Numbered from the stretch's first letter, positions 3,341 to 47,600 are shown. The stretch: DNA of 64,000 nucleotides from an uncultured Verrucomicrobiota bacterium (GCA_903828255.1 CAIKLQ010000501.1:9491-73490); one strand, 5' to 3'. Notes: generated from the sequence alone by a model not told the origin. Program-made: numbers and translations.

Positions 3341-3349
3341 TGCAAGATT

Positions 3350-5430: not shown

Positions 5431-5438
5431 GCGACCGC

Positions 5439-8255: not shown

Positions 8256-8259
8256 TCCC

Positions 8260-8784
8260 ATGCTCAACGAATGGCAGGAACGACGCAGCGAGTTCAATCA
8301 CGACTGGTTGAAGAACCAGTTCTTGAACCGCCTGAACGCTTTTCTTGAGCGGTTGCGAAGCGATAATCCCGACGCGGAAAAATTGTCAAGATTCGTCCGG
8401 GAGCATCTGCCGGAATGGAGTGCGCATGAATCGGAAGCGCGCTGGCTGATTGACTCTGTGGAGAGTGAACTGTCTCCCAAGCGTTTTTTTGACCAGCCGC
8501 CATTGAACCGTTGCGACTCCAAAACCAAGGAATGGTTGCCAACGGTTGTTCATGAACTTTGGTTGAATCGGTATCCGGTTCACGAGTTGCGCGAAAAGGC
8601 CGCCGGGAACCTGGCACAAGTGAACGTGCAATATGCGAAGCTCTCGTCAGCCTTGAAAAATTCGACTTCGGTAAGGGGCGGCGGTTTGGTAGCATTGGAG
8701 CACGAGTTTTCCAAGTTGAGCCGCTTGTGCGTCGAACTGCATGACACATTCAGCGCGTTCGACGTGAAAATCAGAAGATTATGA
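8260..8784 (+). CDS. Small helical protein with an H-box-like motif (candidate stand-alone phosphotransfer protein)
   Basis: 'SEFNHDWLKNQFL' resembles the HisKA H-box (HDxxN); predominantly amphipathic helices and no ATPase domain. Confidence 0.45.
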   Translation: MLNEWQERRSEFNHDWLKNQFLNRLNAFLERLRSDNPDAEKLSRFVREHLPEWSAHESEARWLIDSVESELSPKRFFDQPPLNRCDSKTKEWLPTVVHELWLNRYPVHELREKAAGNLAQVNVQYAKLSSALKNSTSVRGGGLVALEHEFSKLSRLCVELHDTFSAFDVKIRRL

Positions 8785-10589
8785 GTGCGTTGCCCAGAGT
8801 GCTGGTCATTGATGACGATCTTGGACGCCCCTTTAAGCGGTCAAACGGGGACGCTCCGGTATTGGAGAATCCAGATCGTGAGGCGTTTTGCATTCGCGCC
8901 GGCCTCCAGGACGTGACGGGCGACATTCCAGCCGAGAAGATCAATGAACCCGTGGCCGAGGCGGTATTCCTTTCCGGTCTCCGGATTGATGACGGCAAAG
9001 CGGAACAAGCCGTGACGGAAACGCTGGCCGAAATTCGTCGTGGGTGGGAGAAATCGCCGCGATGGGCGCTGATACTACTCGACCTCCATTTCAAGACCGG
9101 CCCCCTCAAATCGGGCGGTATTCCAGCCGGGCGTCCAGAGGACCGCGATCCGCAACGGTATTTTGGGCTGACGTTGCTTGAAGCCATTTCCAAGGAAGCA
9201 CAGTTGCAAGGACTGCCGGTCGTAATTCTCTCCGCGATGGAGCGGGAACGAATTGAGGAGCGATTCTCCAAGGCTGCCAGTGACTTCGTAGATAAGAGCA
9301 AAATCAACCGGGACAAGCTAGGCGAACTGCTGCTTGAACACGGCCTTTTGGCTGATGATCGCATCATCGGCGTCTCTGTGCCGATGTTAACCTGTCTTCG
9401 CGATGCCAGAAGTCGGGCGCGACGTGGTAGCGACAACATCCTCCTCTTGGGAGAAAGCGGATCGGGCAAGGAATTGGTCGCGAATTACATCCACCGCCAA
9501 TCACCAAACGCTTCCGGTCCATACATAACAGTCTTCGTTTCGGCGATACCCGACTCGTTGATTGAAGACGAGCTTTTCGGGCATGAGAAAGGGGCGTTTA
9601 CGGACGGAAAGGCGGCGCGTTTCGGTGCCGCCAAGCTCGCAAACGGAGGAACCCTTTTCCTCGATGAATTTGCGGACATTTCGCCAGCGGTTCAAACGAA
9701 GTTATTGAGACTTTTGGACAAGAACACTCGCGAGGTCAGAGCCATCGGGAGCGGCAAAGGGGAGAAGATCAAGTTGCAGGTTGTCATGGCCACCAACCGG
9801 ATTGAATTGCTGAATGGCGATGATTTTCGAGCCGACCTTCTAGCGCGGGTTAAAGTAAACGAACCCATTTGCGTCCCCCCGCTGCGCGAGCGGAAGGAGG
9901 ATATTCGCCCGCTGGCGCTACACTTCGTCCAAAAATTCGAGACGGAGTTTAAGGCGCAAAAACGCAAGATTTCAGATTCGGCCTGGTCTGCGCTTATGGA
10001 CCACGATTGGCCAGACAATGTTCGCGGACTTGAGCGGGTCATTGAGCAGGCGGTTTACAAAGGAAAGGGACTCCGTGCCCTAATGCCAGAGCATTTGAGC
10101 ATTACCCCGAGGGTTTCGCTCCCGGTCGTCTCGGGGCGGCGAAACAGAGCAACAAAGGAGGAGAATACGCCGCCATCCACGGGGGCCAGTCCGACCGCTG
10201 AGGCTCAGCAGAAGTCGCCGCCAAGACTGAAGGACGTAATCGCATTGCTTGAAGCGTGTGAGGTGGATGCAAACGGCACGGATGAATGGGCTGGCAAGTT
10301 GGATACATTGCAGGAGTCGTATGGCCTGTTGCTTGCCAAACTCGTGAAAGCGGCCCTGTTGAAGGAGCGCAATTTCAAAGGCGAAATCCAGCATACGCCG
10401 GCGATGAGACTTCTCGCAGGGCGACGGTTGGCGGAAAAGGGTGAAGCATCCATTGCTTACAGCGCCATCAAGAGCCTGTTAAGTCATCACCCCCCCGCAT
10501 TGGCAGAAATACTTTCGGACCCCATTTTGAAGCAGATTTACGAAACTGCGTGCGAAAAGCGGTCTGCCAAAAAGCCCAAGGTTTCGTGA
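8781..10589 (+). CDS. Sigma-54 enhancer-binding protein (REC + AAA+, NtrC-like)
   Basis: REC 'VLVIDDD/LILLDLHF/VVILSA/FVDK'; Walker A 'GESGSGKE'; 'ELFGHEKGAFTDG'; Walker B 'LFLDE'; 'FRADL', 'PPLRERKEDI', 'WPDNVRGL'. Confidence 0.92.
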   Translation: MSALPRVLVIDDDLGRPFKRSNGDAPVLENPDREAFCIRAGLQDVTGDIPAEKINEPVAEAVFLSGLRIDDGKAEQAVTETLAEIRRGWEKSPRWALILLDLHFKTGPLKSGGIPAGRPEDRDPQRYFGLTLLEAISKEAQLQGLPVVILSAMERERIEERFSKAASDFVDKSKINRDKLGELLLEHGLLADDRIIGVSVPMLTCLRDARSRARRGSDNILLLGESGSGKELVANYIHRQSPNASGPYITVFVSAIPDSLIEDELFGHEKGAFTDGKAARFGAAKLANGGTLFLDEFADISPAVQTKLLRLLDKNTREVRAIGSGKGEKIKLQVVMATNRIELLNGDDFRADLLARVKVNEPICVPPLRERKEDIRPLALHFVQKFETEFKAQKRKISDSAWSALMDHDWPDNVRGLERVIEQAVYKGKGLRALMPEHLSITPRVSLPVVSGRRNRATKEENTPPSTGASPTAEAQQKSPPRLKDVIALLEACEVDANGTDEWAGKLDTLQESYGLLLAKLVKAALLKERNFKGEIQHTPAMRLLAGRRLAEKGEASIAYSAIKSLLSHHPPALAEILSDPILKQIYETACEKRSAKKPKVS

Positions 10590-10621: not shown

Positions 10622-10640
10622 CCGGGTTGAATGCATTTCC

Positions 10641-16159: not shown

Positions 16160-17815
16160 CTACTTGTCGAGTTCTTCAAGCAGCGTCACGCTATTAGCGA
16201 ACGCGCTGCCGAGGGTCTTGTAGCGTTCAGCCAGGCCACGGCGGTCTTCCGTGTTGATGCGATAATCGCGGTGCGCCGCCTGCAAATGCTCCGCCGTCAT
16301 TGCGTCCACGGTGTCGTCGAAGAAGTTTTGCTTGGCGCGAGTCACCATTTCCTCAAGGTCCGCTCCACTGTAGAACTCGCTTTCCGCCGCAATTTTTGAA
16401 ATCACGGGACGGATTGCATCCTCCGCCATGACAGGTTTAGGCCGACGGCCGATCAAACCAAGGTGCATTTCCAAAATCTGTTGCCGGGCCTGCTGATTGG
16501 GATAAAGAAACGGGATGACGTAACTGAACCTCCCGGGACGCAGGAACGCGGGGTCAAGGTCGCCCGGCACATTGGTCGTGCCGACGATGATGGACTTGCG
16601 GTTGGCATCGCCGAGCCATTCCAGCATTTGAGCGAATACCCTGCTCGTCTCCTGTGAGGCGCTGTCGCCCTGGCCCGACTTCCTGCTGCCGAACCGATCA
16701 ATCTCGTCCACAAACACAATGGCAGGCGATGCCTGTTCTACCATGTGAATCGCATCTCTCACTCGCTGGCCGGACTCGCCGAGATATTTTGAAAACAGGT
16801 TCTCCGTCTTGAGGTTGATAAACGGTAGATTCGTTTCTCTGGCGAGGGCCTTGGCAAAAAGTGTCTTGCCTGTGCCCGGCGGGCCAAAAATGAGAATTCC
16901 GCGCGGTAGCGGAAGTGCGGCTCGCACAGCTCGTTCCCGCTGTTGAAGCGCCCGCACAAGATTGCGCTGAACCATCCGCTTGACGCCGTTGTAGCCACCC
17001 ACGTCGTCGAAGCCGACCGATGGGTCTTCGATTTCTAGTATGTCGGAACGGCGGATGAAGTCGGCTTTGAACTTCTTCACCGTTTCCAAATCAACCCCAT
17101 CGCGCCTGCCAGCCTTGGCGGCGCGATAGGCTTTGTAGATGACGACATCCGTCTGGTGAAGCGTGAGGCCGGCGGTGGCGAGAGTGAGCGCGTTCAGTTC
17201 CTGCTCCGCAAGGCGAACTCCTGATTTCCGCGCGAACGCGCAGATGATTTCCCTTCTTTCGGCATCGCTGGCCAGTTCGGGCCGGGCCAGAACGCTCATC
17301 CCCAATGTCACTTCATCCATCGCGAGCAAGGGGCGGGATGTCACCCAGCACACCACGGATTTCTTGGCGAGAATGTCGCCGTCCTGTGCCCAAGAGCGCA
17401 CCGCGTTCAAGGCGTCCAAGTTCTTGACCGAGTTGCCCTCCGGCTGATCGAGGCCGGATAGAATCAATGCGGTCTTCTCGCGCTTCAACTGGCTGTCCAT
17501 GAATTTGAGCGCGCCTTGCAGGTCTTTTAGTTCGTTTTCAAGGCCAGCGCCGTAGTTGGAATCCACCGGAGCAGTCACAGCGGCAAAGTTGTCACGCTTC
17601 GTTTCCCACTTCTCCAACCCTTTCCAAGGATGGAAACGATAGACATGCTGTCCGAAAAGGCTGACGAGGTATTTCTCCAATTGTCGATTACGGTGAAAGT
17701 CAACGGTCTGCGCGGTCACGACTGCAGAGGCGCTGCAAAGGACTTCCATCATGGCGTTCTCCAGCCAACGGATGTCGAATGTCGGGGTGTTGGATTCGGG
17801 TTGTGACAGTGCCAT
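16160..17815 (-). CDS. Ycf46-like AAA+ ATPase (inactive N-terminal AAA-like half plus active C-terminal AAA)
   Basis: 'FDDVGG', 'PRGILIFGPPGTGKT', 'VFVDEID', 'LDPAFLRPGRF', 'YSGADLE'; start ATG 17815 chosen from the promoter position. Confidence 0.85.
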   Translation of the reverse strand: MALSQPESNTPTFDIRWLENAMMEVLCSASAVVTAQTVDFHRNRQLEKYLVSLFGQHVYRFHPWKGLEKWETKRDNFAAVTAPVDSNYGAGLENELKDLQGALKFMDSQLKREKTALILSGLDQPEGNSVKNLDALNAVRSWAQDGDILAKKSVVCWVTSRPLLAMDEVTLGMSVLARPELASDAERREIICAFARKSGVRLAEQELNALTLATAGLTLHQTDVVIYKAYRAAKAGRRDGVDLETVKKFKADFIRRSDILEIEDPSVGFDDVGGYNGVKRMVQRNLVRALQQRERAVRAALPLPRGILIFGPPGTGKTLFAKALARETNLPFINLKTENLFSKYLGESGQRVRDAIHMVEQASPAIVFVDEIDRFGSRKSGQGDSASQETSRVFAQMLEWLGDANRKSIIVGTTNVPGDLDPAFLRPGRFSYVIPFLYPNQQARQQILEMHLGLIGRRPKPVMAEDAIRPVISKIAAESEFYSGADLEEMVTRAKQNFFDDTVDAMTAEHLQAAHRDYRINTEDRRGLAERYKTLGSAFANSVTLLEELDK

Positions 17816-17828
17816 ACAAAAGGAAGGG

Positions 17829-17845
17829 AGCGGCGGAAGTGCCAA
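17829..17845 (-). promoter_or_regulatory. Sigma-54-type promoter with variant -12
   Basis: TTGGCACTTCCGCCGCT; the -12 C is 15 nt from ATG 17815. Confidence 0.7.
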
Positions 17846-18032: not shown

Positions 18033-19607
18033 TCAGAGATTGCGCGGTGGTGGGGGAAACGTCTCGTCCCAAGCTGCTACGACTTCGAAAGTTCTCAGGT
18101 TAATGTAATATGCTCTGGCCCGCTCCACACATACTGTTGATAAAGCAATGATTCTGATCCACTGCCCGCTAACACTAGCGACGCTGCACCGACTAACTGA
18201 ACAAAACTCATTGGAGGCGAACACCTCCGGGGCAACCAACCAAGTTTGAGGTGCAAGCAGAATGCCTTCTTTTCCCGACTCAAGCGTGGCCAAAAGGATT
18301 CCGGCATCTTCCGAAATAATTATCAGGGATTGGTATTCAGGAGCGACTATCCAATCCCCATCCCAGCCCATCCAGCCACATTTCGTTTCCCCGGATCGAG
18401 GCAGCGACTCGGCAATGAAACGGGTCTGCGTGGAGCGCGGACTTGCGGACATGTCGAACGGTAACATGCGTTGGATTTGTCCAGTCGAGTCGAGTAGCGC
18501 CCACTTGCCATCACGTTTCGCCCATGCCGTGCGCAATCGAACGTGTGGAAGGGTCAATATTTCATAGTCCGGCGGCAGCATCCATTTCCCACCAAAATCC
18601 ATCCAACCCCAGCGCTCGTTTTCTTGAACAAGCACCAGCCCTAGCTCCTCATTGAGATCTGCGATCCGGTCAAACTTGGGAGGCATCACCCACTGTCCAT
18701 CCCGGTTGAGAATCCCCGTTGGCCCAGCGTCACAACTTGCTATGCAGAGGCTTCCGCCCTGCTTGAACCAACCAGGAGGAAAACTGCCATTGATTTCGGG
18801 GCAGGCGACATGTGTGCCGTCGCGCCTGACAATGTGCCATTGTCCCCGTCCGCCAAACGTTGTTCCAACGCGAATACGACTGTTCGGGGTGTCAATTGCT
18901 TCGTCGTATGCACGCCCTTCTTTGGCCCAGGCAATTTCGCCTGCGCGCCGAGGAGCCTCCCAAGATGCAAACCTTGGGGTGATTGCCCATGATCCGTCAG
19001 GTCGAAGAAGCCCCCACGAGCCCTTCCGGCATGCCCAGAAGAGAGCGGCTTCATTGTCGAACGGGGTAATTTCTTCGAATGTCGGCGTCACAACCCATTT
19101 TCCTGTCGCATCAATCAATCCCCAATCAAGTTTCAAGCAAGCCGGTGCGAGTTTAGAAGTGGGATGGAATCGCTTTACCTCAGTGAACTGTCGCGGAATA
19201 CGCCATTCACCTTCCGGGTTAATAAAACCCACCCTAAAGCTGCTGCCGTCTTCCGCGCGCCGAGCTGCGGCCAACCCGGAAACCGGATCAAAGACGTCCA
19301 ACCAGTCAAAGGATGGGGCGATGACCCACTGACCGGCGCGGTTGACGGCGCCGAACACCCTGCCTGTCTCCGGCATGTCCGTTTTTCCGTCCTCTTCGCC
19401 CTCGGTTGTATTGAGGCTGGGAAAAATCGTCTCCGCTATAGCCAGTCCACTGGCGTCATCGAAGTCCGACAAGTGTAAGAATTGGGGTTCAATTACGATA
19501 CGTCCGCAACCATCTATCGCTCCCCATTTACCAGCACGAACAATTGGAAAACGCAAACCGCTCAAGTCCTCATTACAGACTTTGTTCGAGCTGATTTCCG
19601 TGTGCAT
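18033..19607 (-). CDS. WG-repeat (KWG-type) protein
   Basis: Repeats 'GKWGAIDGCGRIVIEPQF', 'WGLIDATGKWVVTPTF', 'WGWMDFGGKWMLPPDY'; no signal peptide evident. Confidence 0.85.
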   Translation of the reverse strand: MHTEISSNKVCNEDLSGLRFPIVRAGKWGAIDGCGRIVIEPQFLHLSDFDDASGLAIAETIFPSLNTTEGEEDGKTDMPETGRVFGAVNRAGQWVIAPSFDWLDVFDPVSGLAAARRAEDGSSFRVGFINPEGEWRIPRQFTEVKRFHPTSKLAPACLKLDWGLIDATGKWVVTPTFEEITPFDNEAALFWACRKGSWGLLRPDGSWAITPRFASWEAPRRAGEIAWAKEGRAYDEAIDTPNSRIRVGTTFGGRGQWHIVRRDGTHVACPEINGSFPPGWFKQGGSLCIASCDAGPTGILNRDGQWVMPPKFDRIADLNEELGLVLVQENERWGWMDFGGKWMLPPDYEILTLPHVRLRTAWAKRDGKWALLDSTGQIQRMLPFDMSASPRSTQTRFIAESLPRSGETKCGWMGWDGDWIVAPEYQSLIIISEDAGILLATLESGKEGILLAPQTWLVAPEVFASNEFCSVSRCSVASVSGQWIRIIALSTVCVERARAYYINLRTFEVVAAWDETFPPPPRNL

Positions 19608-19654: not shown

Positions 19655-21337
19655 TTAACCAGCTCGTAAACTCTTGTTTCCGCTTTTCCGTTTCCGCTCG
19701 CGCGCCGAAGGAATCTCAAGCTCTTTGCGGTAGTTCTCAATGGTCTTTCGCGACAGGATCAGGTCTTCCTCCTTTTCAATGGCCTTGGCGAGTTGCTCAT
19801 CGCTCATCGGATGCGCGCGGTCTTCATGGCGGATGAAATTCATGATCCATTCCTTCACGATGTCCGGCAGGTAACGCACTTCCTGACCATCGGTGTTGCT
19901 GGCTTTTTCTCCGGGTGAACACAGCAGTTTGAGCGGCTTTACCTCGCCGTTCGGCAGGCGAACAAACTTGTCCTGCACGGCGCGACTGACAGTTGATTCG
20001 GAAAGCGCCTGCCCACCGAATTCCTCAAGCTCAAGTTCCGCCCCTGCGTCCGCTGGGCTAAAACATTGAAGGTCAAAACCCTTGCCTGATTTCAAAAACG
20101 GTTTTTGCCGATGGGCTAGGACGGTTGCCACGCGTAGAAGGGTCGTGCGGCGGTCCTCGCAGGCCCGGAGGAATTGCATCACATGCTCCTTACATTCCTC
20201 CTTTTGCTCCCGTTTGATCGTAAGCCCGACGATTTTGTCCTTTGCTTTCGCGCCCGCATCGCCCGGCAGATTCTTTGCCTCACGGAGTGATTCGAGTTGT
20301 TCCTTGAGGTCGTCAATATCCACAAGCAGCGTCTTGCTGATGGAGAGGTGCTCGTATCGGCTGCCGCAAAGTTCCACAGTGAAGCTCCCACCCGGCGACA
20401 GCGAAATGGCAATATCAGGACCGACTCCATCAGGTGATTGAAGGTGGTGATTCTGCCACGGCGTTACTTCCTCCTCGTGCTGGTCCACCGGATGCGGCAC
20501 GGCTTTCAACAGCCGTTGGAGTGTTTGGCGCACTTGCACTTCGTCAATCCCCAGGCGACCTGCAACCGTTTTCGATAACTCCAACGCCACGCACTCGCAG
20601 TCGGTTTGGGACATCACGGAGCTTGCCCCGGCGGTGATTTCCCGCAACTCGCCCGCTTCGACAAGCCCGGCCATGCAGGAGGCGATGCGCCATTCTGGCG
20701 TTTCGTGGCGAGCGTGGCGTTCGAGAAGCAGCCGTCTGGCATCCCAGGCATTGCGGGCAGCGACACCGACCGGTTCGCAGTGCTGGATCAGAGCGAGAAC
20801 TGCGGACAAATCCGCAACTGCCACGCCGCAGGCTTTCGCACATTCATCCATCTCCTCGGTGAAAAATCCTCGGCTGTCCAGCGCCTCCACGATGAACGCC
20901 GCGATGCGATGCCGATGTTCTGCCAAGCGGCTCTCTTTCAATTGAGCCATGATTCGCTCACGGAAATTCGCCGGCGCGGTGAGGTAATCTTCCGGCGTCC
21001 AGTCTCCGTCACTTGATACTCGCGATGTCGCGCCTTCGCTCGCCTGACCAATTTCGCCAATGAAGTCCTTGGCCTCATTCTCGCGGTCGGAAGCGGCCGA
21101 ATTTTCAGGCGAGGATTCCTCGGAAGCATCCTCGTTCGTCTCTGCATTGGCCTGCGCGTCCTGCTGCTCACCCTGCGTTGACGGAACAGCATCCACGAGG
21201 TTCTGTTCCTCCAGTGTTTCGGCCGCCGCGTCAACCTCTCGCTGCGTCATCTCCAACACCTTTAGACCCAGCACGAGTTTCTGGTTTAGGGCGAGCGTTT
21301 GCCGCTGCTTTTGGGTGTGGCGAAATCCGAGCGTCAT
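19655..21337 (-). CDS. rpoN: Divergent RNA polymerase sigma-54 factor
   Basis: Region I 'QKQRQTLALNQKLVLGLKVLEM'; 'IVEALDSRGF', 'IQHCEPVGVAARN', 'RRTTLLRVA..L..RQK.F'; HTH 'SESTVSRAVQDK'; 'ED...PMSDEQL'; RpoN box 'SRKTIENYRKELEIP'. An in-frame upstream ATG at 21442 is possible. Confidence 0.9.
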   Translation of the reverse strand: MTLGFRHTQKQRQTLALNQKLVLGLKVLEMTQREVDAAAETLEEQNLVDAVPSTQGEQQDAQANAETNEDASEESSPENSAASDRENEAKDFIGEIGQASEGATSRVSSDGDWTPEDYLTAPANFRERIMAQLKESRLAEHRHRIAAFIVEALDSRGFFTEEMDECAKACGVAVADLSAVLALIQHCEPVGVAARNAWDARRLLLERHARHETPEWRIASCMAGLVEAGELREITAGASSVMSQTDCECVALELSKTVAGRLGIDEVQVRQTLQRLLKAVPHPVDQHEEEVTPWQNHHLQSPDGVGPDIAISLSPGGSFTVELCGSRYEHLSISKTLLVDIDDLKEQLESLREAKNLPGDAGAKAKDKIVGLTIKREQKEECKEHVMQFLRACEDRRTTLLRVATVLAHRQKPFLKSGKGFDLQCFSPADAGAELELEEFGGQALSESTVSRAVQDKFVRLPNGEVKPLKLLCSPGEKASNTDGQEVRYLPDIVKEWIMNFIRHEDRAHPMSDEQLAKAIEKEEDLILSRKTIENYRKELEIPSARERKRKSGNKSLRAG

Positions 21338-21382
21338 ATTCGTTGGTCTTGGTTGTCGCGTTTTGGTTTCTGATTTTAAGAA

Positions 21383-21502
21383 GCGCGTTCTGTTGCCAGG
21401 TCGCGTGCACCCCGAGGCCGAGTCAGGCATGTCGAATGTCATTTAGGAGTCGCCCATAGTGATTTCCTTTCTGTTGGTTTTGTTGGTGGCTTGGGTCATC
21501 GA
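21383..21502 (-). ncRNA. Candidate structured leader or sRNA, copy 1, containing mini-ORF MGDS* (21457-21443)
   Basis: Predicted TSS about 21502; C/A-rich leader; GAAAGGAAA RBS; hairpin CGCG-AC-CTG-GCAA-CAG-AA-CGCG with a GNRA tetraloop. Confidence 0.5.
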
Positions 21503-21512
21503 GTGGACACTT

Positions 21513-21529
21513 AGCGAGAGTAATGCCAA
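21513..21529 (-). promoter_or_regulatory. Sigma-54-type promoter with variant -12, upstream of rpoN
   Basis: TTGGCATTACTCTCGCT, GG-N10-GC. Confidence 0.75.
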
Positions 21530-21592
21530 CCGGGAAAATTGCTCCAAGCAGAGCGCAGCGCGGCCTCTACGGTCTGGGGATCTACCTGCGCG

Positions 21593-21607
21593 GCTACGCC
21601 CGGTAGC
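21593..21607. promoter_or_regulatory. Candidate upstream activating sequence GCTAC-N5-GTAGC
   Basis: Perfect inverted repeat centred 74 bp upstream of the -24 G; identical sequence and spacing in copy 2. Confidence 0.6.
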
Positions 21608-21631
21608 AATTGCGTAATCGCTGCTACCCGT

Positions 21632-22048
21632 TCAAGCGGATGTGTCCGGCCGAAATCCGATTGGTGCTCGCCATTGCTTTGGGGCGAGACGCTTCTCGAC
21701 TGCTTTTGCCATTGCCTGCATTTGAGCCTCGTTCAGCGTCGCCAGGGTTGCGCTCATTTCTGCGGCTGCGGCGCGGTCTCCGATGCTCTGGAGCATGTCT
21801 TTCACGTCGGCAATCAAAGCCCCAGCCAGCGGCGTCCAATTACCGTCCTTTTCTCGCAGCAATGGAGCGCGCCGAGTAACCTCGCGAACCCAGCCTTCGA
21901 GCAGCCAGTTCCACTTCTTTGCAAACAGTTCCGGGTTGTTTTCGGCTAGGTCGGCCAGATAATGCGTTCTCAGTTTTTTGCGCCGTTGGCGGCGGGCCTG
22001 AGATCTCGTGCTGGCAGGCGGTTGCTTTTCTGAGGCGGATTGTTTCAT
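21632..22048 (-). CDS. Small basic helical hypothetical protein
   Basis: ATG 22048 preceded by GGAG; follows the VirD4-like gene; ends in 'PIGFRPDTSA'. Confidence 0.55.
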   Translation of the reverse strand: MKQSASEKQPPASTRSQARRQRRKKLRTHYLADLAENNPELFAKKWNWLLEGWVREVTRRAPLLREKDGNWTPLAGALIADVKDMLQSIGDRAAAAEMSATLATLNEAQMQAMAKAVEKRLAPKQWRAPIGFRPDTSA

Positions 22049-22109
22049 CGCGGCTCCGGAATCTGAGTTTATTCTATTGGCCTGTGAATGGATGGCGAGG
22101 CGGATTTCC

Positions 22110-24662
22110 TCATTTGCGGTCTTCTTTCTTGGCTTCGTTGGCTCCCATTGTCTTGGCCCAATCACGGCGAGCGACAATTGCAGCCTCCACCTCGGCGACT
22201 GGGCGCGTGTGTGCTCGTTCACGCAACTCCCAAACGACTGGATTGACCCGCTTCTGACGACCGCCCCATTTCGCAGGCAGAGTGGCGAAGACGAACGGTC
22301 GGGTTGGCCCCCGTCCCGTCATGATCCGCGCCACGGCGTGATAATTGGGCAAACCTTGCAGGTCCAAAGCACCAAATTCCGGTTGGGTGTAAAGGCGAAG
22401 TTTTTCGGCATCGGGGGCACCCACGCGAAAGGCAATCAAGCTGCCCACATTGCCGAGGACCGCCTCCATGACATTTTGCCGACCGGCGTTGGCGGTGAGC
22501 TGGCTTAGGTTCTGGTTTGCAAGGGTCAAGTGGAGGCCATACTTCCGCGCTTCGGCGAGCATGAATGCGGCCCCGTCGTTCACGAAGTTCTGGAACTCAT
22601 CCACGTAAAGATGAAAAGCGTGACGCTTATGTATGGGCACGTCAGCACGGCTCATGGCGACCGAAAAAATGCGCGAGAGAATAAAGGACCCTAGCAGTTG
22701 GGCATCGAATTCACCCAGCAAACCTTTGGGAAGTTTGACCAGCAGAATCCCCTGGCGGTTCATAATGCCCCGGAAATCAATCGTGCTCTCGGCCTGACCC
22801 ACAATCGGTCGAATGAGGGCATTGTAAGTAAATGAGTTCAGCTTGCAGGTGATGTAGGGGGCAATGTTGGCCAACGCGGCATCCCCTCCGGCCTTTTCGG
22901 CAATGTCCCTCCAAAAGCCGATGACGGTTGGGTTCTTGCAGCGCCCCAATAGAAACTGCCGATAAGCCCTGTTCTCAAAGACCAGCGACATCTCCATTAT
23001 GGTTACGGCCGGCAGATCACTTTCCAAAAGGAGCAACAATGCGTTGCGGAAATACGTCTCGAACATCGGCCCGCCAGCCTGGCGCATGTCATACATCCGG
23101 TCGAAGGTCTTTAGCAGCTCGTTGACGGCGAAGTTGATCTGCCTGCCACGACCCGGGCCACTGCATTCGAGGATATTCAGGCCAGGAGCAAAATCTGACT
23201 GCCCGGGATTAAAAAGCACGACGTCCTTCGCTCTGCTCAACGGCAGGTTTTCAACAATCTGGTCATAGAGATCGCCATGCGGATCAATCAGGCACACGCC
23301 GCGTCCTTCGCGAATGTCCTGGCGTATCATGTTGGCCAGCAGCGTGGATTTTCCCGTGCCGGTAGCCCCCAACACATACACATGGCGGCTGCGCGCGGCC
23401 TGCTCAAGGTGAACACTCTGACGCCCTGTTTCGTTTATGGTGCCAAGGAGCAAACCACTTTGATCCAATTCGGGAGAACGTAGATTGTAATGACGACGAA
23501 CTCTAACCCGTGAGAACGTCTCCAGCGTTGGAAACACAGGAGGCAAGGAAACACCGGCGGGCAGGCAGCCCTCAAGGTGCAGTTGTCTTGTGACATTCTC
23601 CGGCCTTGAACCGGCGGGTTTTGCCGAGCCGTTTGTGATCTTGGCGGCAACCACGTTCACGGCGCTGCCGAGGACTTCGGCACCGATCACGGCAAGCAAC
23701 GGCGCTAGGGCGGTCTCCTCGGCGACCGCCCTGCAATCAAGTTTTACACCTTGAGGTGATTCAACCCACCGCTTGAGTGTGGTTTCTACAGGGCCGGCGG
23801 CTGAGGCGTCCAAGTGCTGATCGGCAAGTTGGCGCTCAAGGGCCGATGGATGCCGCCTCACCCAGGTCAATGTGTCCGCCACTTGCTGTTGCTGCACGGA
23901 AGTCAGATCGAAACGCCTCAGCTTGACCGAGAGATGAATGCGGGCGGGACTGTTCGCGACGACATCAGCCACGGAGCTGAACGAACGGGTCAGCCTTGAA
24001 GGCCGGGGCAGACTGACGAGAAGGTTCCCCGCAGTCACGTCCGGCTGCGGTTGGGCGAAGCCCAATGAGGCGGTCTGTGGGACGTTGAGGAGAAGCGTCT
24101 GAGCTTCAAATGAAACACCCTGAAGCGAGTTCCACACAGGGACTAATTGCTCTTCCGCATCTCCATTCTGGAATCGCATCGCCGGTTCACTTGCCAAAAC
24201 CAAAAGGAGATTCTGGCGCAACGATGCGGCTTTGCGAGCCGCTTCCTCTTCTGAATCAGCGTCCCGTATCCAGCCGTTGATTCGCCAGCAGAATTCGTGT
24301 CCGCCGCCGCCTCCGAAAACGAACTCCACCGAGGCATCACTAATCGTCTCATGGAGCATCTTGGACAGGAGGCGCGTGGAGCTTACCGAGGTTTCACTCG
24401 AACGCCCATTGGACACGCTGCACCCGTTCAGAGCGACTCCTGACAAGTTGAAGGGAACATTCGCGCCGAATCGTCCGGTTTCCCGGTTCTCGGCGACTAC
24501 AAACCCTTCATGTTGCTTCCGAAAGCGCCATTCCGTTCGGCTTTCCTCATTCGGAGCGGCCTCCGTAAATCTTGCCGGGATGGTTGGAACGCTCTCAGGA
24601 AGTTCTCGCGACACAAGGGAGTCGGGCGGGCAACACGGCATCGTTTCAATAGTGGTTGTCAT
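22110..24662 (-). CDS. VirD4/TraD-like (HerA-FtsK superfamily) ATPase without an evident membrane anchor
   Basis: 'RHVYVLGATGTGKST', 'LIDPHGD', 'LYVDEFQNF', 'EARKYGLHLTLANQNLSQL', 'GNVGSLIAFRVG'; start ATG 24662 preferred. Confidence 0.85.
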   Translation of the reverse strand: MTTTIETMPCCPPDSLVSRELPESVPTIPARFTEAAPNEESRTEWRFRKQHEGFVVAENRETGRFGANVPFNLSGVALNGCSVSNGRSSETSVSSTRLLSKMLHETISDASVEFVFGGGGGHEFCWRINGWIRDADSEEEAARKAASLRQNLLLVLASEPAMRFQNGDAEEQLVPVWNSLQGVSFEAQTLLLNVPQTASLGFAQPQPDVTAGNLLVSLPRPSRLTRSFSSVADVVANSPARIHLSVKLRRFDLTSVQQQQVADTLTWVRRHPSALERQLADQHLDASAAGPVETTLKRWVESPQGVKLDCRAVAEETALAPLLAVIGAEVLGSAVNVVAAKITNGSAKPAGSRPENVTRQLHLEGCLPAGVSLPPVFPTLETFSRVRVRRHYNLRSPELDQSGLLLGTINETGRQSVHLEQAARSRHVYVLGATGTGKSTLLANMIRQDIREGRGVCLIDPHGDLYDQIVENLPLSRAKDVVLFNPGQSDFAPGLNILECSGPGRGRQINFAVNELLKTFDRMYDMRQAGGPMFETYFRNALLLLLESDLPAVTIMEMSLVFENRAYRQFLLGRCKNPTVIGFWRDIAEKAGGDAALANIAPYITCKLNSFTYNALIRPIVGQAESTIDFRGIMNRQGILLVKLPKGLLGEFDAQLLGSFILSRIFSVAMSRADVPIHKRHAFHLYVDEFQNFVNDGAAFMLAEARKYGLHLTLANQNLSQLTANAGRQNVMEAVLGNVGSLIAFRVGAPDAEKLRLYTQPEFGALDLQGLPNYHAVARIMTGRGPTRPFVFATLPAKWGGRQKRVNPVVWELRERAHTRPVAEVEAAIVARRDWAKTMGANEAKKEDRK

Positions 24663-24804
24663 GGGGAAAATGGTGGGTGAATCGTTTTGTTGAATTGAAG
24701 GGCTTGATACAGGGAAGAACACACTCCACCTGTTCAAACGGGGCCACACAAGAAGGGGCACCCTTCAGACCAACACAAATGTGCTTACGGATTAAAAGGG
24801 GGTT

Positions 24805-24821
24805 AGCGGCGGTCGTTCCAT
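24805..24821 (-). promoter_or_regulatory. Sigma-54-type promoter with variant -12, upstream of the VirD4-like gene
   Basis: ATGGAACGACCGCCGCT, GG-N10-GC. Confidence 0.6.
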
Positions 24822-24909
24822 TTGCGCAAACAACTGAACTCCGGTTCGAAATCGTATCCAAGAGTCTGAACGAGGAACGCCAATGAAATCGGCGCGAAGA
24901 ATGTGAGAT

Positions 24910-25027
24910 GCGCGTTCTGTTGCCAGGTCGCGTGAACCCCGAGGCCGAGTCAGGCGTTGCGCGTTAATTATTAGTCGTTCATAAAGTTTTCCCTTCTGTT
25001 GGTTTGGTTGGAGGCTTGGAACACCGA
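24910..25027 (-). ncRNA. Candidate structured sRNA, copy 2, containing mini-ORF MND* (24982-24971)
   Basis: Predicted TSS about 25027; RBS GAAGGGAAAA; same conserved core; the downstream gene has its own promoter. Confidence 0.5.
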
Positions 25028-25037
25028 GTGGACACTT

Positions 25038-25054
25038 AGCGAGAGCGATGCCAA
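25038..25054 (-). promoter_or_regulatory. Sigma-54-type promoter with variant -12
   Basis: TTGGCATCGCTCTCGCT. Confidence 0.75.
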
Positions 25055-25116
25055 CCCGATAATTTGTTCGAGAGCGCCCTTCTGCGTCCATTTCGCGCAC
25101 CAAATCTCTCGACCTC

Positions 25117-25133
25117 TGCTACGCCCGGTAGCA
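25117..25133. promoter_or_regulatory. Candidate UAS TGCTAC-N5-GTAGCA between divergent sigma-54 promoters
   Basis: Perfect inverted repeat, about -98 from the leftward TSS and about -126 from the rightward TSS. Confidence 0.6.
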
Positions 25134-25223
25134 ACCGTGTAATCGGCGCTATCCACCAAGCCCCATCAAGCAGACGAGAGTTGCTTCGCGCATGCCCAAG
25201 CCAAACCCACGCGCCTTCAACAA

Positions 25224-25240
25224 GTGGCACAAGCGCCGCT
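25224..25240 (+). promoter_or_regulatory. Sigma-54-type promoter with variant -12 for the rightward operon
   Basis: GTGGCACAAGCGCCGCT; the -12 C is 17 nt from ATG 25256. Confidence 0.75.
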
Positions 25241-25255
25241 TGAATTGATTCGTGC

Positions 25256-26143
25256 ATGAACACTCCAACCCGATCAGCCGAACCAACGATTCGTTGCATG
25301 GACTGCGGTCGCAAGAACGATGCGAGCGAAAGCGTCTGCGAGTTTTGTGGTGCGACACTTCGTTCGAGCCAATCATCGTTCGCCGAACCTCCCGGCGGCA
25401 ACAGTGCTGGAGTGCGCCCCAGCCTGCCTCCGCCGCTTTTCTCGGCTAACGCCGTATCGCCAGTCTTCCCGTTCTCCGGGCCGTTGACCCGCTCCTCATC
25501 GGAGCTGGAGTCCATCTCCGCTAAAAACGAGGACCAGCGGGTTACGGGCGCGGAACTGAGCGGGCGCGTGATTGCCGCCGAGCCGGTCGTTCATGAGCAG
25601 CCCGATTTCGACTGGTGCAAGCTCGTGACCCGCCTCCTCTGGTTTCTGTTGCTGGTCGTTTCGCCCTTCGTTCTGCTGCGCACGGTGCTCGTCCACTTGG
25701 GGGCATTGCCGGTTGTCTTCGCCGTCGTGGGATTCCTGTTCCTGCTCCGGTTTTTCAGTCCCACGAATATTATTTCGCTACTTCATCTTCACATGCTTTT
25801 GAATCCGCTTCGTCGTAACGAGGCCGAGCAAGTTCCCGTCCGCTACTTTCGCGTCCGTGATACTCAGGAGCGGGAGTGGGTTGTGCGGATGAAGGGACAG
25901 GTCAACGGTGGCAACATTGCGCCCGATGACTTGATTTCGGCCTGGGGCAGATGGCGCAGCGGCACGCTTTCCCTGACGCGCGCTTACAATCACCGAACGC
26001 AGAGCTACGCCTCCATCAGAAGTTCGCAATCGTGGATCATGCTCACGGTAACGGTGGGGGTGATCCTGTTCCTCGGCATATACTTCTACGATCCGCTCCA
26101 CGCGATGTGGCAGATGATGCACCGGATGGGAGGTTCACAGTGA
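25256..26143 (+). CDS. Zinc-ribbon membrane protein with an OB-like beta domain
   Basis: 'CMDCG...CEFCG'; about three hydrophobic segments; beta-rich 'VRYFRVRD...VVRMKG..GG.IAPDD.I.AWG'. Confidence 0.7.
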   Translation: MNTPTRSAEPTIRCMDCGRKNDASESVCEFCGATLRSSQSSFAEPPGGNSAGVRPSLPPPLFSANAVSPVFPFSGPLTRSSSELESISAKNEDQRVTGAELSGRVIAAEPVVHEQPDFDWCKLVTRLLWFLLLVVSPFVLLRTVLVHLGALPVVFAVVGFLFLLRFFSPTNIISLLHLHMLLNPLRRNEAEQVPVRYFRVRDTQEREWVVRMKGQVNGGNIAPDDLISAWGRWRSGTLSLTRAYNHRTQSYASIRSSQSWIMLTVTVGVILFLGIYFYDPLHAMWQMMHRMGGSQ

Positions 26144-28713
26144 CGTTACCCGAAAAAATCAGTGGATTGGAAGGTGGTCATTTGGACGGCACGGGACTGC
26201 CCCAATTCTCCATGGAGTATTTCTCCGGTTGGGGGTTCGTGCGCGTGCAAAGCCTCGCGCGCTTTTGGGATACGCCTGAGTCAGCGAGTCAGACATTGGA
26301 ATCGGCGCAGGAGGCGTTCTATTCCGGCCTGCACGCGGCGCAATTACCGTGGGGTCTGCTGGTCCTCGGAGAGCCAACCCGCGTTTCGATCCATTTCGTG
26401 CTTCCCGGTGCGGGCAGTCGCTTGGCGTCCTGGAGCGGTGCGATTAAAGGTGCGCTTCCCGGATGCGAACTCGCCGACGATGTATCCAACCAGCAAATCT
26501 GTTCGCAGTTGGAGAAAATGCCGTTTGCCGTTGCCGTCACGGGGAATCCGTTTGTGGGAAATGTAGATGAAGGCTCGCAGCGAGTTGTTCGATCAGAAGG
26601 TGGGCGATTGGAGCGCGTGCTCTGCTCGTTGCGCGGTCGTGCATTCGCGTATCTGGTAGTCGCTCGCCCAGTGAAGCTGCCAGAAGTGGAGCGGACGCTG
26701 AACAACCTCACCATTGAGGAGCGTGAAATCCGGTCGGCGTTCATGCGGAAAGGCTCATCCGAAGACGGCAACAATCCCCGCGCGCAGCACTACCTGGAAC
26801 TGCTTCGGGTTTCGCGCGAAAATCATCTCGCCGGGCGGAATATCGGCATGTGGGATACCGGGGTTTATCTTCACACAGCGGATCAGAGCACTCTCATCGA
26901 GGGGAGTCGGGCGCTTCATGGGGTTCTGACGGGAGCACGAAACCAGCCTCAGCCCATCCGAGTGAATGTCTGCGAACGTCCCGCCCAAGGTCGGTTTGAG
27001 CCGGTTTTCACCCGCTTGAATTCCAAGGAAGTCATGGTTTTGACATGCCTGCCGAAAGAGGAATTGCCGGGCTATGAAATTCGCCAGCGGGTGTCTTTTG
27101 GTGTTTCGCCAGTGCTGCATGGAGCGGGAGACGTGGTGGATGTCGGCGTCGTTCTCAAGGACAGCCAGCGGACAGGCAATTGGTTTTCCGTTCCGGTGAA
27201 TGATTGGGCGCGGCACGCTCTGATCGCGGGTGTTTCCGGTTCGGGCAAGACGAACACCTGCAAATCCATCCTTTTTCAGTGCTGGCACGACCATTCCGTT
27301 CCATGGCTGGTGCTCGAACCCTCAATCAAGTCGGAGTATCGCACGCTGCTCAAGTCGAAGATTGGCGCGGATGTCCGCGTCTTCACACTTGGCGATGAAA
27401 CAGCCGTGCCATTCCGCCTGAACCCGTTGGAAGTCATGGCGGGCATCCATGTGCAAACGCACATTGATGCGTTGCTCGCGCTTTTCAACTCGGCCTTCGC
27501 CTGGGTTTCGCCAATGCCGGAAGTTCTTAACCTCGCCGTTCACCGACTCTACACAAACTTCGGCTGGGACTTAGCCACAGGCAGTCGTCACAAGACGGAC
27601 GGTTCAGAGCAGCCGACTTTGCGGGATTTGTTGGCGGTCATTCCGGGGTTGGTCGGCGAACTCGGCTACAACGACGACATTTCCTCGACGATTCGCGCAG
27701 GCTTGCTCACGCGACTTTCCAGTCTGTCGCTCGGTGCGAAAGGGCTGATGTTGAATTCCGGCCATTCCATTCCTTTCGACTACCTGCTCGCCAAGCCGAC
27801 GATTCTTGAAATGGCTACCATCGGCAACGAGGAGGAGAAAGCATTCCTGCTTGGGGCGGTTTTAGTGCGGCTCGCGCAATACCGCCAGCGCCAAGGAACG
27901 ACGGATGGGAAATTACGTCACCTCCTGCTGATTGAAGAAGCTCATCGGCTGTTGTCCGCCGTGCCTTCACAGGTCGCGTCCGAAGTCGCCAATCCGCGCG
28001 GCAAGGCGGTAGAAACCTTTTGCCATCTGTTGGCGGAGTTGCGGGCGTTTGGGCAAGGCATTGTCGTCGCGGAACAAATCCCTGCGAAACTCGCGCCGGA
28101 TGTTGTCAAGAACACGACGGTGAAGATTGTGCATCGGCTCGGTGCGAATGATGACCGCCGCCTGCTCGGTGGAACGATGAATCTCGATCCCTCCCAAGAG
28201 AAGTTCCTCTCCACGCTGCGTAATGGTCAGGCCGTAGCTTACACTGAAGGGCGTGAGACGGCCTTCCATATTGGAGTTCCCCACTTCGAGCATGGGCAGA
28301 ACCCGCTTCCCGTTCCGACGAAGGAAGAAATTGTTGTTCACATGCGCTCACAGTTGCCAGAGATGCCGCCGATCACACATGCGCTACGCAAAAAGCACAC
28401 AACTGCTACTGCTGATAACATTCCATCTTGTGCCGGCTGTCTACCCAGCTCTTGCACCATGCGGGGCGTAGTGCTGCAAAAGTTGGCGAAGTCTGGTTGG
28501 GAAGCGGAATTCGAGGGATCAATTGAACGCGGCTGGAAGGGAATTTGGGAGTTTGGCATGTCCGCCGCTAAAACCCTCCCTGTGACGAATAAACCCAACT
28601 GCGCCTACTGTGTCCTGATGAACATCGCCGCATTGAACCGCTGGGATGATGAAACCGTGGAACGAATGCGGCGCAATCTCGCGGCGCTCCGAGACAACAT
28701 GGCAATCTCCTGA
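26140..28713 (+). CDS. HerA/DUF87-like ATPase with a C-terminal Cys cluster
   Basis: GTG 26140 overlaps TGA and has a GGAGG RBS; 'RHALIAGVSGSGKTNT', 'LLIEEAHRLL', 'EQIPAKLAPDVVKNTTVKIVHRL'; 'CAGC...C...CAYC'. Confidence 0.85.
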   Translation: MTLPEKISGLEGGHLDGTGLPQFSMEYFSGWGFVRVQSLARFWDTPESASQTLESAQEAFYSGLHAAQLPWGLLVLGEPTRVSIHFVLPGAGSRLASWSGAIKGALPGCELADDVSNQQICSQLEKMPFAVAVTGNPFVGNVDEGSQRVVRSEGGRLERVLCSLRGRAFAYLVVARPVKLPEVERTLNNLTIEEREIRSAFMRKGSSEDGNNPRAQHYLELLRVSRENHLAGRNIGMWDTGVYLHTADQSTLIEGSRALHGVLTGARNQPQPIRVNVCERPAQGRFEPVFTRLNSKEVMVLTCLPKEELPGYEIRQRVSFGVSPVLHGAGDVVDVGVVLKDSQRTGNWFSVPVNDWARHALIAGVSGSGKTNTCKSILFQCWHDHSVPWLVLEPSIKSEYRTLLKSKIGADVRVFTLGDETAVPFRLNPLEVMAGIHVQTHIDALLALFNSAFAWVSPMPEVLNLAVHRLYTNFGWDLATGSRHKTDGSEQPTLRDLLAVIPGLVGELGYNDDISSTIRAGLLTRLSSLSLGAKGLMLNSGHSIPFDYLLAKPTILEMATIGNEEEKAFLLGAVLVRLAQYRQRQGTTDGKLRHLLLIEEAHRLLSAVPSQVASEVANPRGKAVETFCHLLAELRAFGQGIVVAEQIPAKLAPDVVKNTTVKIVHRLGANDDRRLLGGTMNLDPSQEKFLSTLRNGQAVAYTEGRETAFHIGVPHFEHGQNPLPVPTKEEIVVHMRSQLPEMPPITHALRKKHTTATADNIPSCAGCLPSSCTMRGVVLQKLAKSGWEAEFEGSIERGWKGIWEFGMSAAKTLPVTNKPNCAYCVLMNIAALNRWDDETVERMRRNLAALRDNMAIS

Positions 28714-30285: not shown

Positions 30286-30846
30286 ATGTCACTAACCGCT
30301 GATTACGATACTGAGATTCGAGTTCCCCAATTTCAACTTGGCGAAGCGCTTGGGGCTGTTGCCGGCCTTGCCGCATCCGAGATTCTGCGAAGACTTCTCA
30401 CCGGCAGATCGGGCACGCAAAGCGTCGCTGCCAGCACGCCGCAGCCGGAATTGACCTCCGCGCTCGCAAACATTCGTAGCCTTCCCTCCATGAACATCAT
30501 GCGGCAGGCTCTTGAAACAGTCGCTCGCGAGCGGAACGGCTCGGTGGCGGAAGACTACGAAGACTGCAATGGTAAGCGAACTCCCTGCCTCATCGGGTTG
30601 AAGGCTCCGCAGTTCCCGCGAGGAGTGGGAGTGGACATCTCGGCTGATGGCAAAGTCGTGTTCCGTTATGACGAGGTAGGCGGTGTTGCGCCTGCCGCCA
30701 AGTCGCTTTGCGACGATGTTTGCCGCGTGTATGCGACCATAGCGGTCCTGCACGCTCAAAAGAAACTCGGCTACCGGGTCAGCGCACGAGACATGTCGGA
30801 TGCCGCTGGCCGGAAGCAGGTGGTTGTTTCCGCAATGCGCGACTAA
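30286..30846 (+). CDS. DUF1257/Ycf35-like protein
   Basis: 'MS...YDTEI', 'QALE', 'GVDI..DG.V.F.YD', 'RVYA..AV...KKLGYRV' pattern; DUF2997-like gene nearby. Confidence 0.5.
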   Translation: MSLTADYDTEIRVPQFQLGEALGAVAGLAASEILRRLLTGRSGTQSVAASTPQPELTSALANIRSLPSMNIMRQALETVARERNGSVAEDYEDCNGKRTPCLIGLKAPQFPRGVGVDISADGKVVFRYDEVGGVAPAAKSLCDDVCRVYATIAVLHAQKKLGYRVSARDMSDAAGRKQVVVSAMRD

Positions 30847-30851
30847 AAGCC

Positions 30852-32375: not shown

Positions 32376-32560
32376 AGCCGCGTAGCTGGAGCGACGACAC
32401 CAACACCAGACGGAAGCCCGCCGCCCTCGCGGCATTCTGCCAATGCTCGCTTGTGACGAGCGCGCGGTTTGCGGAGCGGAACGGGCGTGGTCGAGAGGGA
32501 TACGGGGTCGACCGGCAGCCCGTGCAGCGGAGCAGAACCGCGCGTTGGTCACGGCAGAAT
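32345..32560. repeat. Long imperfect hairpin repeat, copy A
   Basis: Palindromic core GTGAC...GTCAC at 32453-32552; direct repeat of about 33880-34100. Confidence 0.85.
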
Positions 32561-32631
32561 CGGTAACGTGCACAGCGTTCTCCGGCTCGCAACGAGTGCA
32601 ACGAGAATCCCCATGTCCTTTCGCAAATGGT

Positions 32632-33879: not shown

Positions 33880-34100
33880 GAAAGTGGAGCGGAGGGCGGA
33901 GAGAAGCGCATAGCGAATCGTAGCCGGAGCGCAACGCCGCCGCCGAGCCACAGACGGAAGCCGCCGCGTCTGCGGCACTGCAATATGAAAGCTCGTGACG
34001 AGCGCGCGATTTGCGAAGCGGAACGGGCGTGGTTGAGAGGGGACAGGGCCGACCGGCAGCCCGTGAAGCGCAGCAAACCGCGCGTTGGTCACGGCGGATT
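33880..34100. repeat. Long imperfect hairpin repeat, copy B
   Basis: Palindromic core CGTGAC...GTCACG at 33994-34093. Confidence 0.85.

Positions 34101-42922: not shown

Positions 42923-47600
<4,678 letters not shown>

Follow-up and report, generated by a model that had tools for sequence, protein, structure and literature searches.

What is the function of a short cassette that stands, with the same parts in the same order, ahead of two different genes? The question is raised by a stretch of DNA of 64,000 nucleotides (nt) from an uncultured Verrucomicrobiota bacterium (GCA_903828255.1 CAIKLQ010000501.1:9491-73490), which we call the window; the host genome has 8.9 Mb in 1053 contigs and is 94% complete. 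Sequence reading, a repeat search and an alignment placed two cassettes on the minus strand, about 3.5 kb apart and with identical block order: from 5′ to 3′, an inverted repeat, some 60 nt of spacer, a promoter of sigma-54 type, a C/A-rich tract, a Shine-Dalgarno (SD) sequence, an open reading frame (ORF) of three or four codons that we call the mini-ORF, a spacer of 12 to 14 nt, and a core of 46 nt. Copy 1 precedes the gene for a divergent sigma-54 paralogue, and copy 2 precedes genes for a HerA/TraD-like ATPase and a protein of 138 amino acids (aa). We conclude that the cassette is probably a new regulatory leader. Its anatomy, its block-wise conservation and the genes around it were read directly from the DNA; we infer from the sequence that the promoter is active, that ribosomes translate the mini-ORF, and that the RNA folds and influences the genes behind it.

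Conservation of the cassette block by block

An earlier note on this DNA had described a duplicated minus-strand element with a near-invariant core, and both copies are present as it described them. The cores, at 21383..21428 (copy 1) and 24910..24955 (copy 2), both on the minus strand, are identical at 45 of 46 positions, a figure that our alignment reproduced. Five blocks are conserved in all: the enhancer-like inverted repeat, the sigma-54-type promoter, the C/A-rich leader with its SD, the mini-ORF and the core. Between copy 1 and copy 2, identity is 30/37 in the upstream repeat, 31/35 in the promoter and first transcribed bases (conserved bases extend to about +10), 20/24 in the C/A tract, 10/11 in the SD block and 7/9 over ATG..GAC. 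It is 27/60 in the spacer between repeat and promoter, 6/14 in the stop-to-core spacer, where 12 to 14 bases are unalignable, and 24/72 in the segment after the core.

Positions free of constraint have been randomised, so the duplication is old and each block that was kept is a footprint of selection. The alternative named by the earlier note, a simple recent duplication, fails: the cassette is not merely that, because the spacers have diverged to near random while the promoter, the SD, ATG-RRC-GAC, the TAA column and the core have stayed fixed in three copies, the third of which comes from a metagenome contig, L005. In these three full sequences the core varies at a single position, a G/T located between two predicted hairpins. 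No further core was found in the host genome at two or fewer mismatches. Covariance model R1 scores the copy 1 core at 82.7 bits and the copy 2 core at 83.4 bits; it finds no third copy in the genome (next best 20.7 bits, expectation value [E] 0.1) and, with filters off, no extra copy in the window and metagenome contigs L005-L007 (next best 12 bits).

Related loci in metagenomes and genome collections

Contig L005 carries the whole cassette, with a sigma-54 paralogue 91% identical to that of the window. Its core matches copy 2 at 46/46 positions and its upstream block matches copy 1 at 36/37; its mini-ORF reads ATG GGC GAC GAA TAA and is followed by a spacer of 13 nt. Between copy 1 and L005, ordinary non-coding spacers are identical at 51/59 and 58/64 positions (109/123 columns). 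For the bases between SD and ATG the count is 0/5, for codon 4 it is 0/3, and from stop to core it is 5/14 (5/22 together, in ungapped MAFFT columns of an alignment that is not unique). This fast-changing segment, ATG-RRC-GAC and TAA excepted, spans window positions 21429-21462 (L005 176-210) and adjoins the invariant core.

Logan contigs of four runs from four studies were compared with window positions 21250-25200, parts of which lacked cover in runs X18 and X7. In X4 and X9 the core forms a unitig of its own, of 50 and 54 nt with one differing letter, at about double the depth of its neighbours (18 versus 10 in X4; 32.7 versus about 14 in X9); therefore, those genomes hold two identical cores too. 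The X9 leader beside the core differs at 21 of 136 positions for copy 1 and at 14, plus 6 gaps, of 125 for copy 2, and the X9 ATPase operon has 98 differences in 3173 positions, fewer per base than the leaders. In run X7, a single Logan contig joins position 21382 directly to 24910, skipping 3527 nt, so that the bases that follow the copy 1 core adjoin the leader and core of copy 2. The copy 1 leader is nearly uncovered there (depth 1.34), and the joint may therefore reflect assembly through the repeat, conversion of a leader, or a variant of the locus that lacks the ATPase operon.

A DNA query had no match among 60 relatives, and a profile of the sigma-54 paralogue had none among 400 genomes of the phylum at E<=1e-40. 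A plasmid collection searched with the DNA query in distant mode gave no match, and viral contigs gave none with the core pattern or the sigma-54 profile. Contigs of GTDB genomes returned 18 loci with this profile, all of them ordinary rpoN at 22-33% identity. Metagenome contigs returned three, of which L005 alone includes the upstream region; L006 and L007 contain just the gene's 3′ end. The island that carries the cassettes is accessory and rare.

Two sigma-54-type promoters with an upstream inverted repeat

The proposal that both copies have sigma-54 promoters agrees with the sequence: each shows TGGCA at -24, GC at -12 and exactly 10 nt between GG and GC. The promoters share the pattern TGGCAT-N5-TCGCT and lie on the minus strand at 21513..21528 (TGGCATTACTCTCGCT, copy 1) and 25038..25053 (TGGCATCGCTCTCGCT, copy 2). 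This motif has two matches in 64 kb against 0.04 expected, and no further match with two or fewer mismatches was found in the 8.9-Mb genome. When the general sigma-54 pattern TGGCAYNNNNNTYGCW is used, TGGCATTACTCTCGCT and TGGCATCGCTCTCGCT are the sole two matches in the window; chance predicts 0.38, and two are reached in 4 of 100 shuffles.

About 110 nt upstream of both promoters stands a conserved block that is absent from the earlier note's list. On the minus strand at 21593..21629 (copy 1) it consists of GGTAGCA-N13-TGCTACC overlapping GCTAC-N5-GTAGC, and at 25118..25154 (copy 2) of TGCTAC-N5-GTAGCA; both belong to repeat family D5. This inverted repeat matches twice in the window, only at the two cassettes, against 0.11 expected, and genome-wide there is one extra match, with two mismatches, on contig C130. 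Thus, companions of a sigma-54 promoter are present: the upstream repeat, two sigma-54 genes, and 18 PF00158 matches genome-wide, including one in the island.

A separate promoter had also been placed after copy 2. There is indeed a motif, TGGAACGACCGCCGCT, at 24805..24820 on the minus strand, 89 nt after the copy 2 core and with the correct GG-N10-GC spacing, but it is the weaker one: its -24 element is TGGAA, and it is sigma-54-like as a consensus match only. In run X9, homology to the window restarts at 24822, beside this motif.

A minimal ORF behind a Shine-Dalgarno sequence

The copy 1 leader contains a C/A-rich, G-poor tract (21473..21497, minus strand; A12 C11 G2 T0 of 25) that could, judging by its composition, serve as a Rho loading site or as an unstructured landing zone for ribosomes. 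The SD follows, as AGAAAGGA at 21465..21472 in copy 1 and as AGAAGGGA at 24990..24997 in copy 2, both on the minus strand. The genome's own 16S gene copy, on contig C766, ends …GGATCACCTCCTTTCT (3′ end …CCTCCTTTCT). Complementarity to this end bears out what had been called an SD-like sequence: the copy 1 SD is an 8-nt complement, and the copy 2 SD pairs with the same tail through one G.U. The spacing from SD to ATG is 7 nt, with 5-6 pyrimidine-rich bases between. By eye, and for starts that are not validated, SD-like words occur at about 4 of the 27 ORF starts listed from the window, and the starts of the sigma-54 paralogue and the ATPase have no SD. The SD of the mini-ORF stands out because so few window ORF starts carry one and both downstream genes have none.

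The mini-ORF itself reads ATG GGC GAC TCC TAA (MGDS) at 21443..21457 in copy 1 and ATG AAC GAC TAA (MND) at 24971..24982 in copy 2, both on the minus strand; in copy 2 a second TAA follows directly and is aligned with the stop of the other copies. ATG-RRC-GAC and a TAA in one alignment column are found in 3/3 copies, where the SD is identical at 10-11 of 11 positions. Conservation of the mini-ORF, on which the earlier note had set weight, is thus confirmed by SD, start and stop in all three copies. Indels in run X9 also preserve frame and spacing: a CGG insertion in the mini-ORF keeps the frame, changes of -1 and +1 between SD and ATG keep their distance, and the spacer gains one base. The spacer from stop to core is 14 nt in copy 1 and 12-14 nt across the three copies, and the distance from the stop to the main start is 105 nt in copy 1 and about 310 nt in copy 2. 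In copy 1, the TAA of the mini-ORF is immediately followed by an ATG (window 21442-21445) that is in frame with the sigma-54 gene and opens a 595-aa ORF. This junction is probably accidental, since L005 and copy 2 have no such junction.

Predicted RNA structure

The element had been put forward as an unrecognised RNA, and a check against Rfam 15 agrees, with no match at gathering score over the 64-kb window. At E<=10, the region 21200-25300 gives only rsmX (19.1 bits versus 56) and snoU105B, two plus-strand hits that fall within the ATPase gene.

When core stretches of 48-50 nt are folded alone, the hairpin CGCG-AC-CUG-GCAA-CAG-AA-CGCG is predicted in both window copies. This is the GCAA-capped stem with an internal loop of the earlier description, and it recurs in full at a folded length of 141 nt for copy 1 and of 95-97 nt for copy 1 and L005, but the 141-nt and 95-nt folds of copy 2 retain only the CUG-GCAA-CAG tip. 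A second proposed stem, CCUGA/UCGGG, appears in the minimum-energy fold of copy 2 but of that copy only. The 5′ half of the core is predicted to fold differently in copy 1 and copy 2, and the seven pairs of the GCAA hairpin show no variation in the three sequences.

For the three leaders together, RNAalifold predicts a fold in which (A/G)GGAA of the SD pairs with UUCU(U/C) 3′ of the core and shows one double change, from A-U to G-C; the pyrimidine-rich spacer between SD and ATG is matched to GGGGU, where C-G and U.G replace each other; the mini-ORF contributes GG.CGA to a helix with UCG.CC of the core; and the GCAA hairpin sits between the helices. This SD-sequestering fold is the minimum-energy structure for copy 1 and L005. 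In the proposed fold 93.9% of cells pair, versus 30-51% with slid partners, in a comparison on the same sequences from which the fold was derived. We take the RNAalifold fold as a hypothesis and not as evidence; an RNA reading of the element is no more than plausible.

Other candidate RNAs and pairings were dropped. For a small antisense RNA from the plus strand, the sole terminator-like site (21446-21466) is a weak complement of the variable mini-ORF region. By eye, no long-range pairing was found between the core and either downstream start region. Pairing of the first transcribed bases with the core, seen in one fold, is broken by L005.

A possible translation-coupled leader and its competitors

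How might these parts work together? We tentatively favor a translation-coupled leader acting in cis, a reading that we hold to be possible rather than probable: a ribosome on the mini-ORF and the core, alone or protein-bound, would set the yield of the SD-less downstream genes. The cassette would then comprise an enhancer site, a sigma-54 promoter and a 5′ leader, driving the sigma-54 paralogue and the operon of the ATPase and the 138-aa protein. The enhancer-binding protein of the island would bind the inverted repeat about 110 nt upstream and fire both promoters. Because one promoter target is a sigma factor gene, the circuit would feed forward on itself, with the paralogue amplifying its own synthesis as in rhizobial prxS-rpoN2. 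The transcribed leader would act as a checkpoint in cis after initiation. Its G-poor C/A tract and unusually strong SD would load a ribosome onto an ORF of three or four codons, whose TAA would come 12-14 nt before a 46-nt RNA block with a constant GCAA-capped hairpin. The 5′ half of this block may alternate between a local fold and pairing with the SD/AUG region, so that ribosome occupancy of the mini-ORF, possibly together with a core-bound protein, would control the amount of SD-less downstream message that is produced or translated.

Several results speak against this reading. No fold is more stable than its dinucleotide shuffles (z of +0.99, +1.09, +0.24 and +0.04, and of +0.35, +0.16 and +0.10 for the 95-97-nt folds), so that thermodynamic stability does not rise above background. 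The SD-sequestering fold is not the minimum-energy structure of copy 2. Only 1 of the 22 pairs changes on both sides in the three sequences, a level of covariation reached by 169 of 500 column shuffles. Invariance of the core is complete and so does not separate constraint on RNA from constraint on DNA, and no RNA run is among the 21 runs listed for the locus. Copy 2 is separated from the start of the ATPase, the first gene after it, by the second promoter-like motif and by about 245 nt in all, so that the copy 2 leader need not belong to the ATPase mRNA. Finally, a sigma-54 homologue with 48% identity (P0016) has a frame that stays open over the 102 nt upstream of its start and matches no frame of the core; therefore, the core in its present form is not within 102 nt upstream of the P0016 start.

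A bolder form of the translation-coupled leader gives it a purpose, and we regard it as quite improbable. The leader would be a translation-sensing gate on a self-amplifying sigma-54 circuit of the island, which would switch on an anti-phage ATPase module, with the translation status of the host as an input to defence. A ribosome captured by the strong SD on the four-codon ORF would stop against the invariant RNA block, and the state of this complex, or a protein bound to the block, would decide expression of the sigma factor and the effector operon. The fast divergence seen between SD and core would fit an arms race at this point.

The main rival, which we judge rather unlikely, is that the core acts as DNA: an operator, such as a repressor roadblock or a non-productive site for sigma-54 holoenzyme, with the SD and mini-ORF as a separate matter. 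Invariance over some 46 bp is equally expected for protein-DNA contacts and for RNA, the RNA folds do no better than shuffles, and the 3′ half of the core is an imperfect palindrome centred on GCAA. The core also holds CTGGCA and then CGCGC, resembling a -24/-12 pair, but with a GG-to-GC spacing of 9 or 11 nt where 10 is required, so that it is not a canonical sigma-54 promoter. It is unlike the upstream enhancer-like repeat, and in copy 1 a role as enhancer of a promoter further downstream is excluded, since just 45 nt separate the core from the sigma-54 ATG. Its fixed distance of 12-14 nt from a conserved stop codon is left unexplained by a DNA operator.

Could the cores instead be direct repeats homogenised by recombination or gene conversion, perhaps as sites of excision or exchange for a 3.5-kb ATPase cassette? 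They do flank the ATPase operon in direct orientation, the X7 contig joins its two sides, and both copies share one unitig in X4 and in X9. The X7 joint, however, comes with a copy 1 leader depth of 1.34 and perhaps reflects assembly through the repeat. Identity starts and stops sharply and at the same place in all genomes, which is unlike conversion tracts; a Pfam scan of 31 different window ORFs turned up no recombinase; and the other cassette blocks are conserved too, in order and spacing. We consider this explanation highly unlikely.

A trans-acting small RNA is more doubtful still. According to this idea, which refines the free RNA of about 120 nt in the earlier note, copy 2 gives rise to an RNA of about 115 nt with its 3′ end beyond the core, and the ATPase operon starts from the second promoter-like motif. 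Correct spacing of that motif and the return of X9 similarity exactly at it favor the idea, and a promoter for such an RNA is present. What is missing is its end: no intrinsic terminator-like site was found on the minus strand after either core, so a discrete RNA is unsupported, as is the free RNA of the earlier note. Moreover, copy 1 continues into the sigma-54 gene 45 nt later, and one cassette before two genes is more simply a leader.

That the core is protein-coding, whether it encodes a small protein or lengthens the N-terminus of the sigma-54 paralogue, can practically be dismissed. The copy 1 TAA-ATG does open the 595-aa ORF (19655..21442), and an L005 ATG does open a frame of 34 codons that crosses the core and finishes with ATGA where the sigma-54 gene starts, but these are frame 1 in copy 1 and frame 2 in L005 with no start in copy 2, the third frame contains TGA, invariance extends to all three codon positions, the extended N-terminus of P0016 shows no trace of the core, a 103-aa ORF over copy 2 has a single relative (99 aa, 100% identical) in 5.8 billion proteins, and most homologues of the paralogue (554-562 aa) begin at MxLGFRHTQ, for which reason we set the 595-aa frame aside.

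Genes downstream of the cassettes

The copy 1 core ends 45 nt before the ATG, at 21337, of the sigma-54 paralogue (560 aa; 19655..21337, minus strand). The protein matches Pfam Sigma54_DBD (5.1e-25) and Sigma54_CBD (1.2e-22); these two domains score weakly, and its activator-interacting region falls below the Pfam threshold. The housekeeping rpoN lies on another contig and scores 189.5 bits, versus 91.2 for the paralogue, which is about 25% identical to ordinary rpoN. Among 5.8 billion proteins, its family amounts to about 17 at 48-100% identity, and all others are at 22-35%. The sequence RKTIENYRK, at residues 530-538, is invariant in 15 family members. It is located where ordinary sigma-54 has its RpoN box (ARRTVAKYR), and the residues that differ could accompany a shift in promoter preference. 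Another relative, P0017 (544 aa), has a TraD/coupling-protein-like N-terminal part followed by the last 170 residues of the sigma-54 paralogue; either its contig is chimeric or the locus has been rearranged in a different sample.

Downstream of copy 2, the ATPase (850 aa; 22110..24662, minus strand) matches Pfam TrwB_AAD_bind, DUF87 and TraG-D_C, PADLOC mad8 (7e-21) and HerA, and phrog_5156 (1.3e-41). The second gene of the operon encodes the 138-aa protein (21632..22048, minus strand), which has an arginine-rich N-terminus and belongs to an unnamed family. It has 47 relatives at E<=0.001, mostly of 115-135 aa, with an N-terminal motif RRKxxRxxYLxxLA and with R23 invariant in 30 aligned sequences. 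Its AlphaFold model consists of four helices with a pLDDT of 87.9. The protein has no family match in Pfam, PADLOC or PHROG, and a comparison with PDB folds gave 0 of 198 listed matches at E<=0.001.

A defence-type neighborhood

Judging by gene content, window positions 239-63530 look like a defence-type island. An enhancer-binding protein of 602 aa is encoded at 8781..10589 on the plus strand; it matches Pfam Sigma54_activat (7.4e-43) and, over its AAA+ part (residues 166-425), PADLOC RtcR_PspF2. Of the 18 PF00158 matches in the genome, it is the only one on the contig of the cassettes, and it is a candidate activator of both promoters. The island further encodes a PRTase_III-A-like protein (10611-13355), an IetA/TRIP13-like AAA protein (16160-17845), a WG-repeat protein (18033-19607), a second HerA/mad8-like ATPase (25951-28713), a radical SAM protein (30708-31487) and three proteins that resemble parts of DISARM: a DEAD/MZB helicase (34444-39660), an SNF2 helicase (39591-42479) and an Eco57I-type methylase (42919-47604). 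Five large proteins at 239-8784 have no family match.

A second pair of direct repeats lies on the plus strand at 32408-32565 and 33950-34105. These repeats are about 155 nt long, roughly 88-92% identical and 1.54 kb apart, with diverged flanks. ORFs that overlap them have no Pfam family, and the repeats have no Rfam match at gathering score; the pair may be another duplicated non-coding element of the island.

Significance and comparison with known systems

Should the leader prove functional, it would represent a cis-regulatory RNA motif, so far unclassified, with a tie to sigma-54 transcription, and a natural case of a minimal ORF and a fixed RNA block acting together. Its setting may be of greater interest: the accessory island brings a sigma-54 and an enhancer-binding protein of its own, along with two promoters that have no other match in the genome. 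The rarity of the family, about 17 proteins in 5.8 billion, and the fact that each functional step is deduced from DNA limit the weight of both points. Our literature search, which covered papers without their supplements, found none that ties sigma-54 to defence islands, or sigma-54 and bacterial enhancer-binding proteins to anti-phage function, so a privately wired sigma-54 switch for defence genes may be undescribed. Also apparently undescribed are the leader itself, to go by Rfam, the combination of a minimal ORF with an invariant block, and a defence-type island that carries its own sigma-54 and activator.

The promoter part is ordinary sigma-54 architecture, and the closest parallels to the rest come from several directions. 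In leader-peptide attenuators and riboswitch-type leaders, a 5′ leader forms mutually exclusive pairings, one of them involving an SD, much as is proposed for the cassette; the cassette differs from these in having no intrinsic terminator, no regulatory run of codons within its 3-4 codons, no Rfam family and no support from covariation. The nut site of lambda type consists of boxA and a boxB hairpin that is bound by the arginine-rich N protein. The cassette resembles it, as a lead only, in that its leader has a small predicted hairpin closed by a GNRA-type loop and the same operon encodes a small protein with an arginine-rich N-terminus. However, the boxA-like bases after the hairpin differ in copy 2, and the 138-aa protein matches no PHROG, Pfam or PDB relative. 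RtcR-type systems, whose enhancer-binding proteins drive sigma-54 operons next to genes for defence and RNA repair, share with the island an AAA+ enhancer-binding protein near defence-type genes (PADLOC RtcR_PspF2/RtcR). In the island protein, however, the match is confined to the AAA+ part and a CARF domain was not detected, and the known systems rely on the sigma-54 of the host.

Upstream ORFs, upstream ribosome-binding sites and minimal start-stop ORFs tune expression of a main gene by ribosome occupancy (PMC13285730; bioRxiv 10.1101/520783). The bacterial cases described there resemble the cassette in having a very short SD-primed ORF in or near the leader, with a product too small to be of use. 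They act by coupling or occlusion at a nearby main start, whereas here the stop is 105 or about 310 nt away and a 46-nt block lies between.

A close parallel to the proposed circuit is prxS-rpoN2 of Mesorhizobium loti and Rhizobium etli, in which a second rpoN on an accessory element has an RpoN-dependent promoter and an upstream activator site (PMC3538637). There the sigma factor feeds forward on itself, as is proposed here, and a housekeeping rpoN is likewise found elsewhere in the genome, but the activator is NifA and the regulon is that of nitrogen fixation; the accessible part of that source describes no conserved leader, mini-ORF or invariant block (PMC3538637). The present paralogue is far more divergent than RpoN2, at about a quarter of residues shared with ordinary rpoN, and its neighbors are of the defence type.

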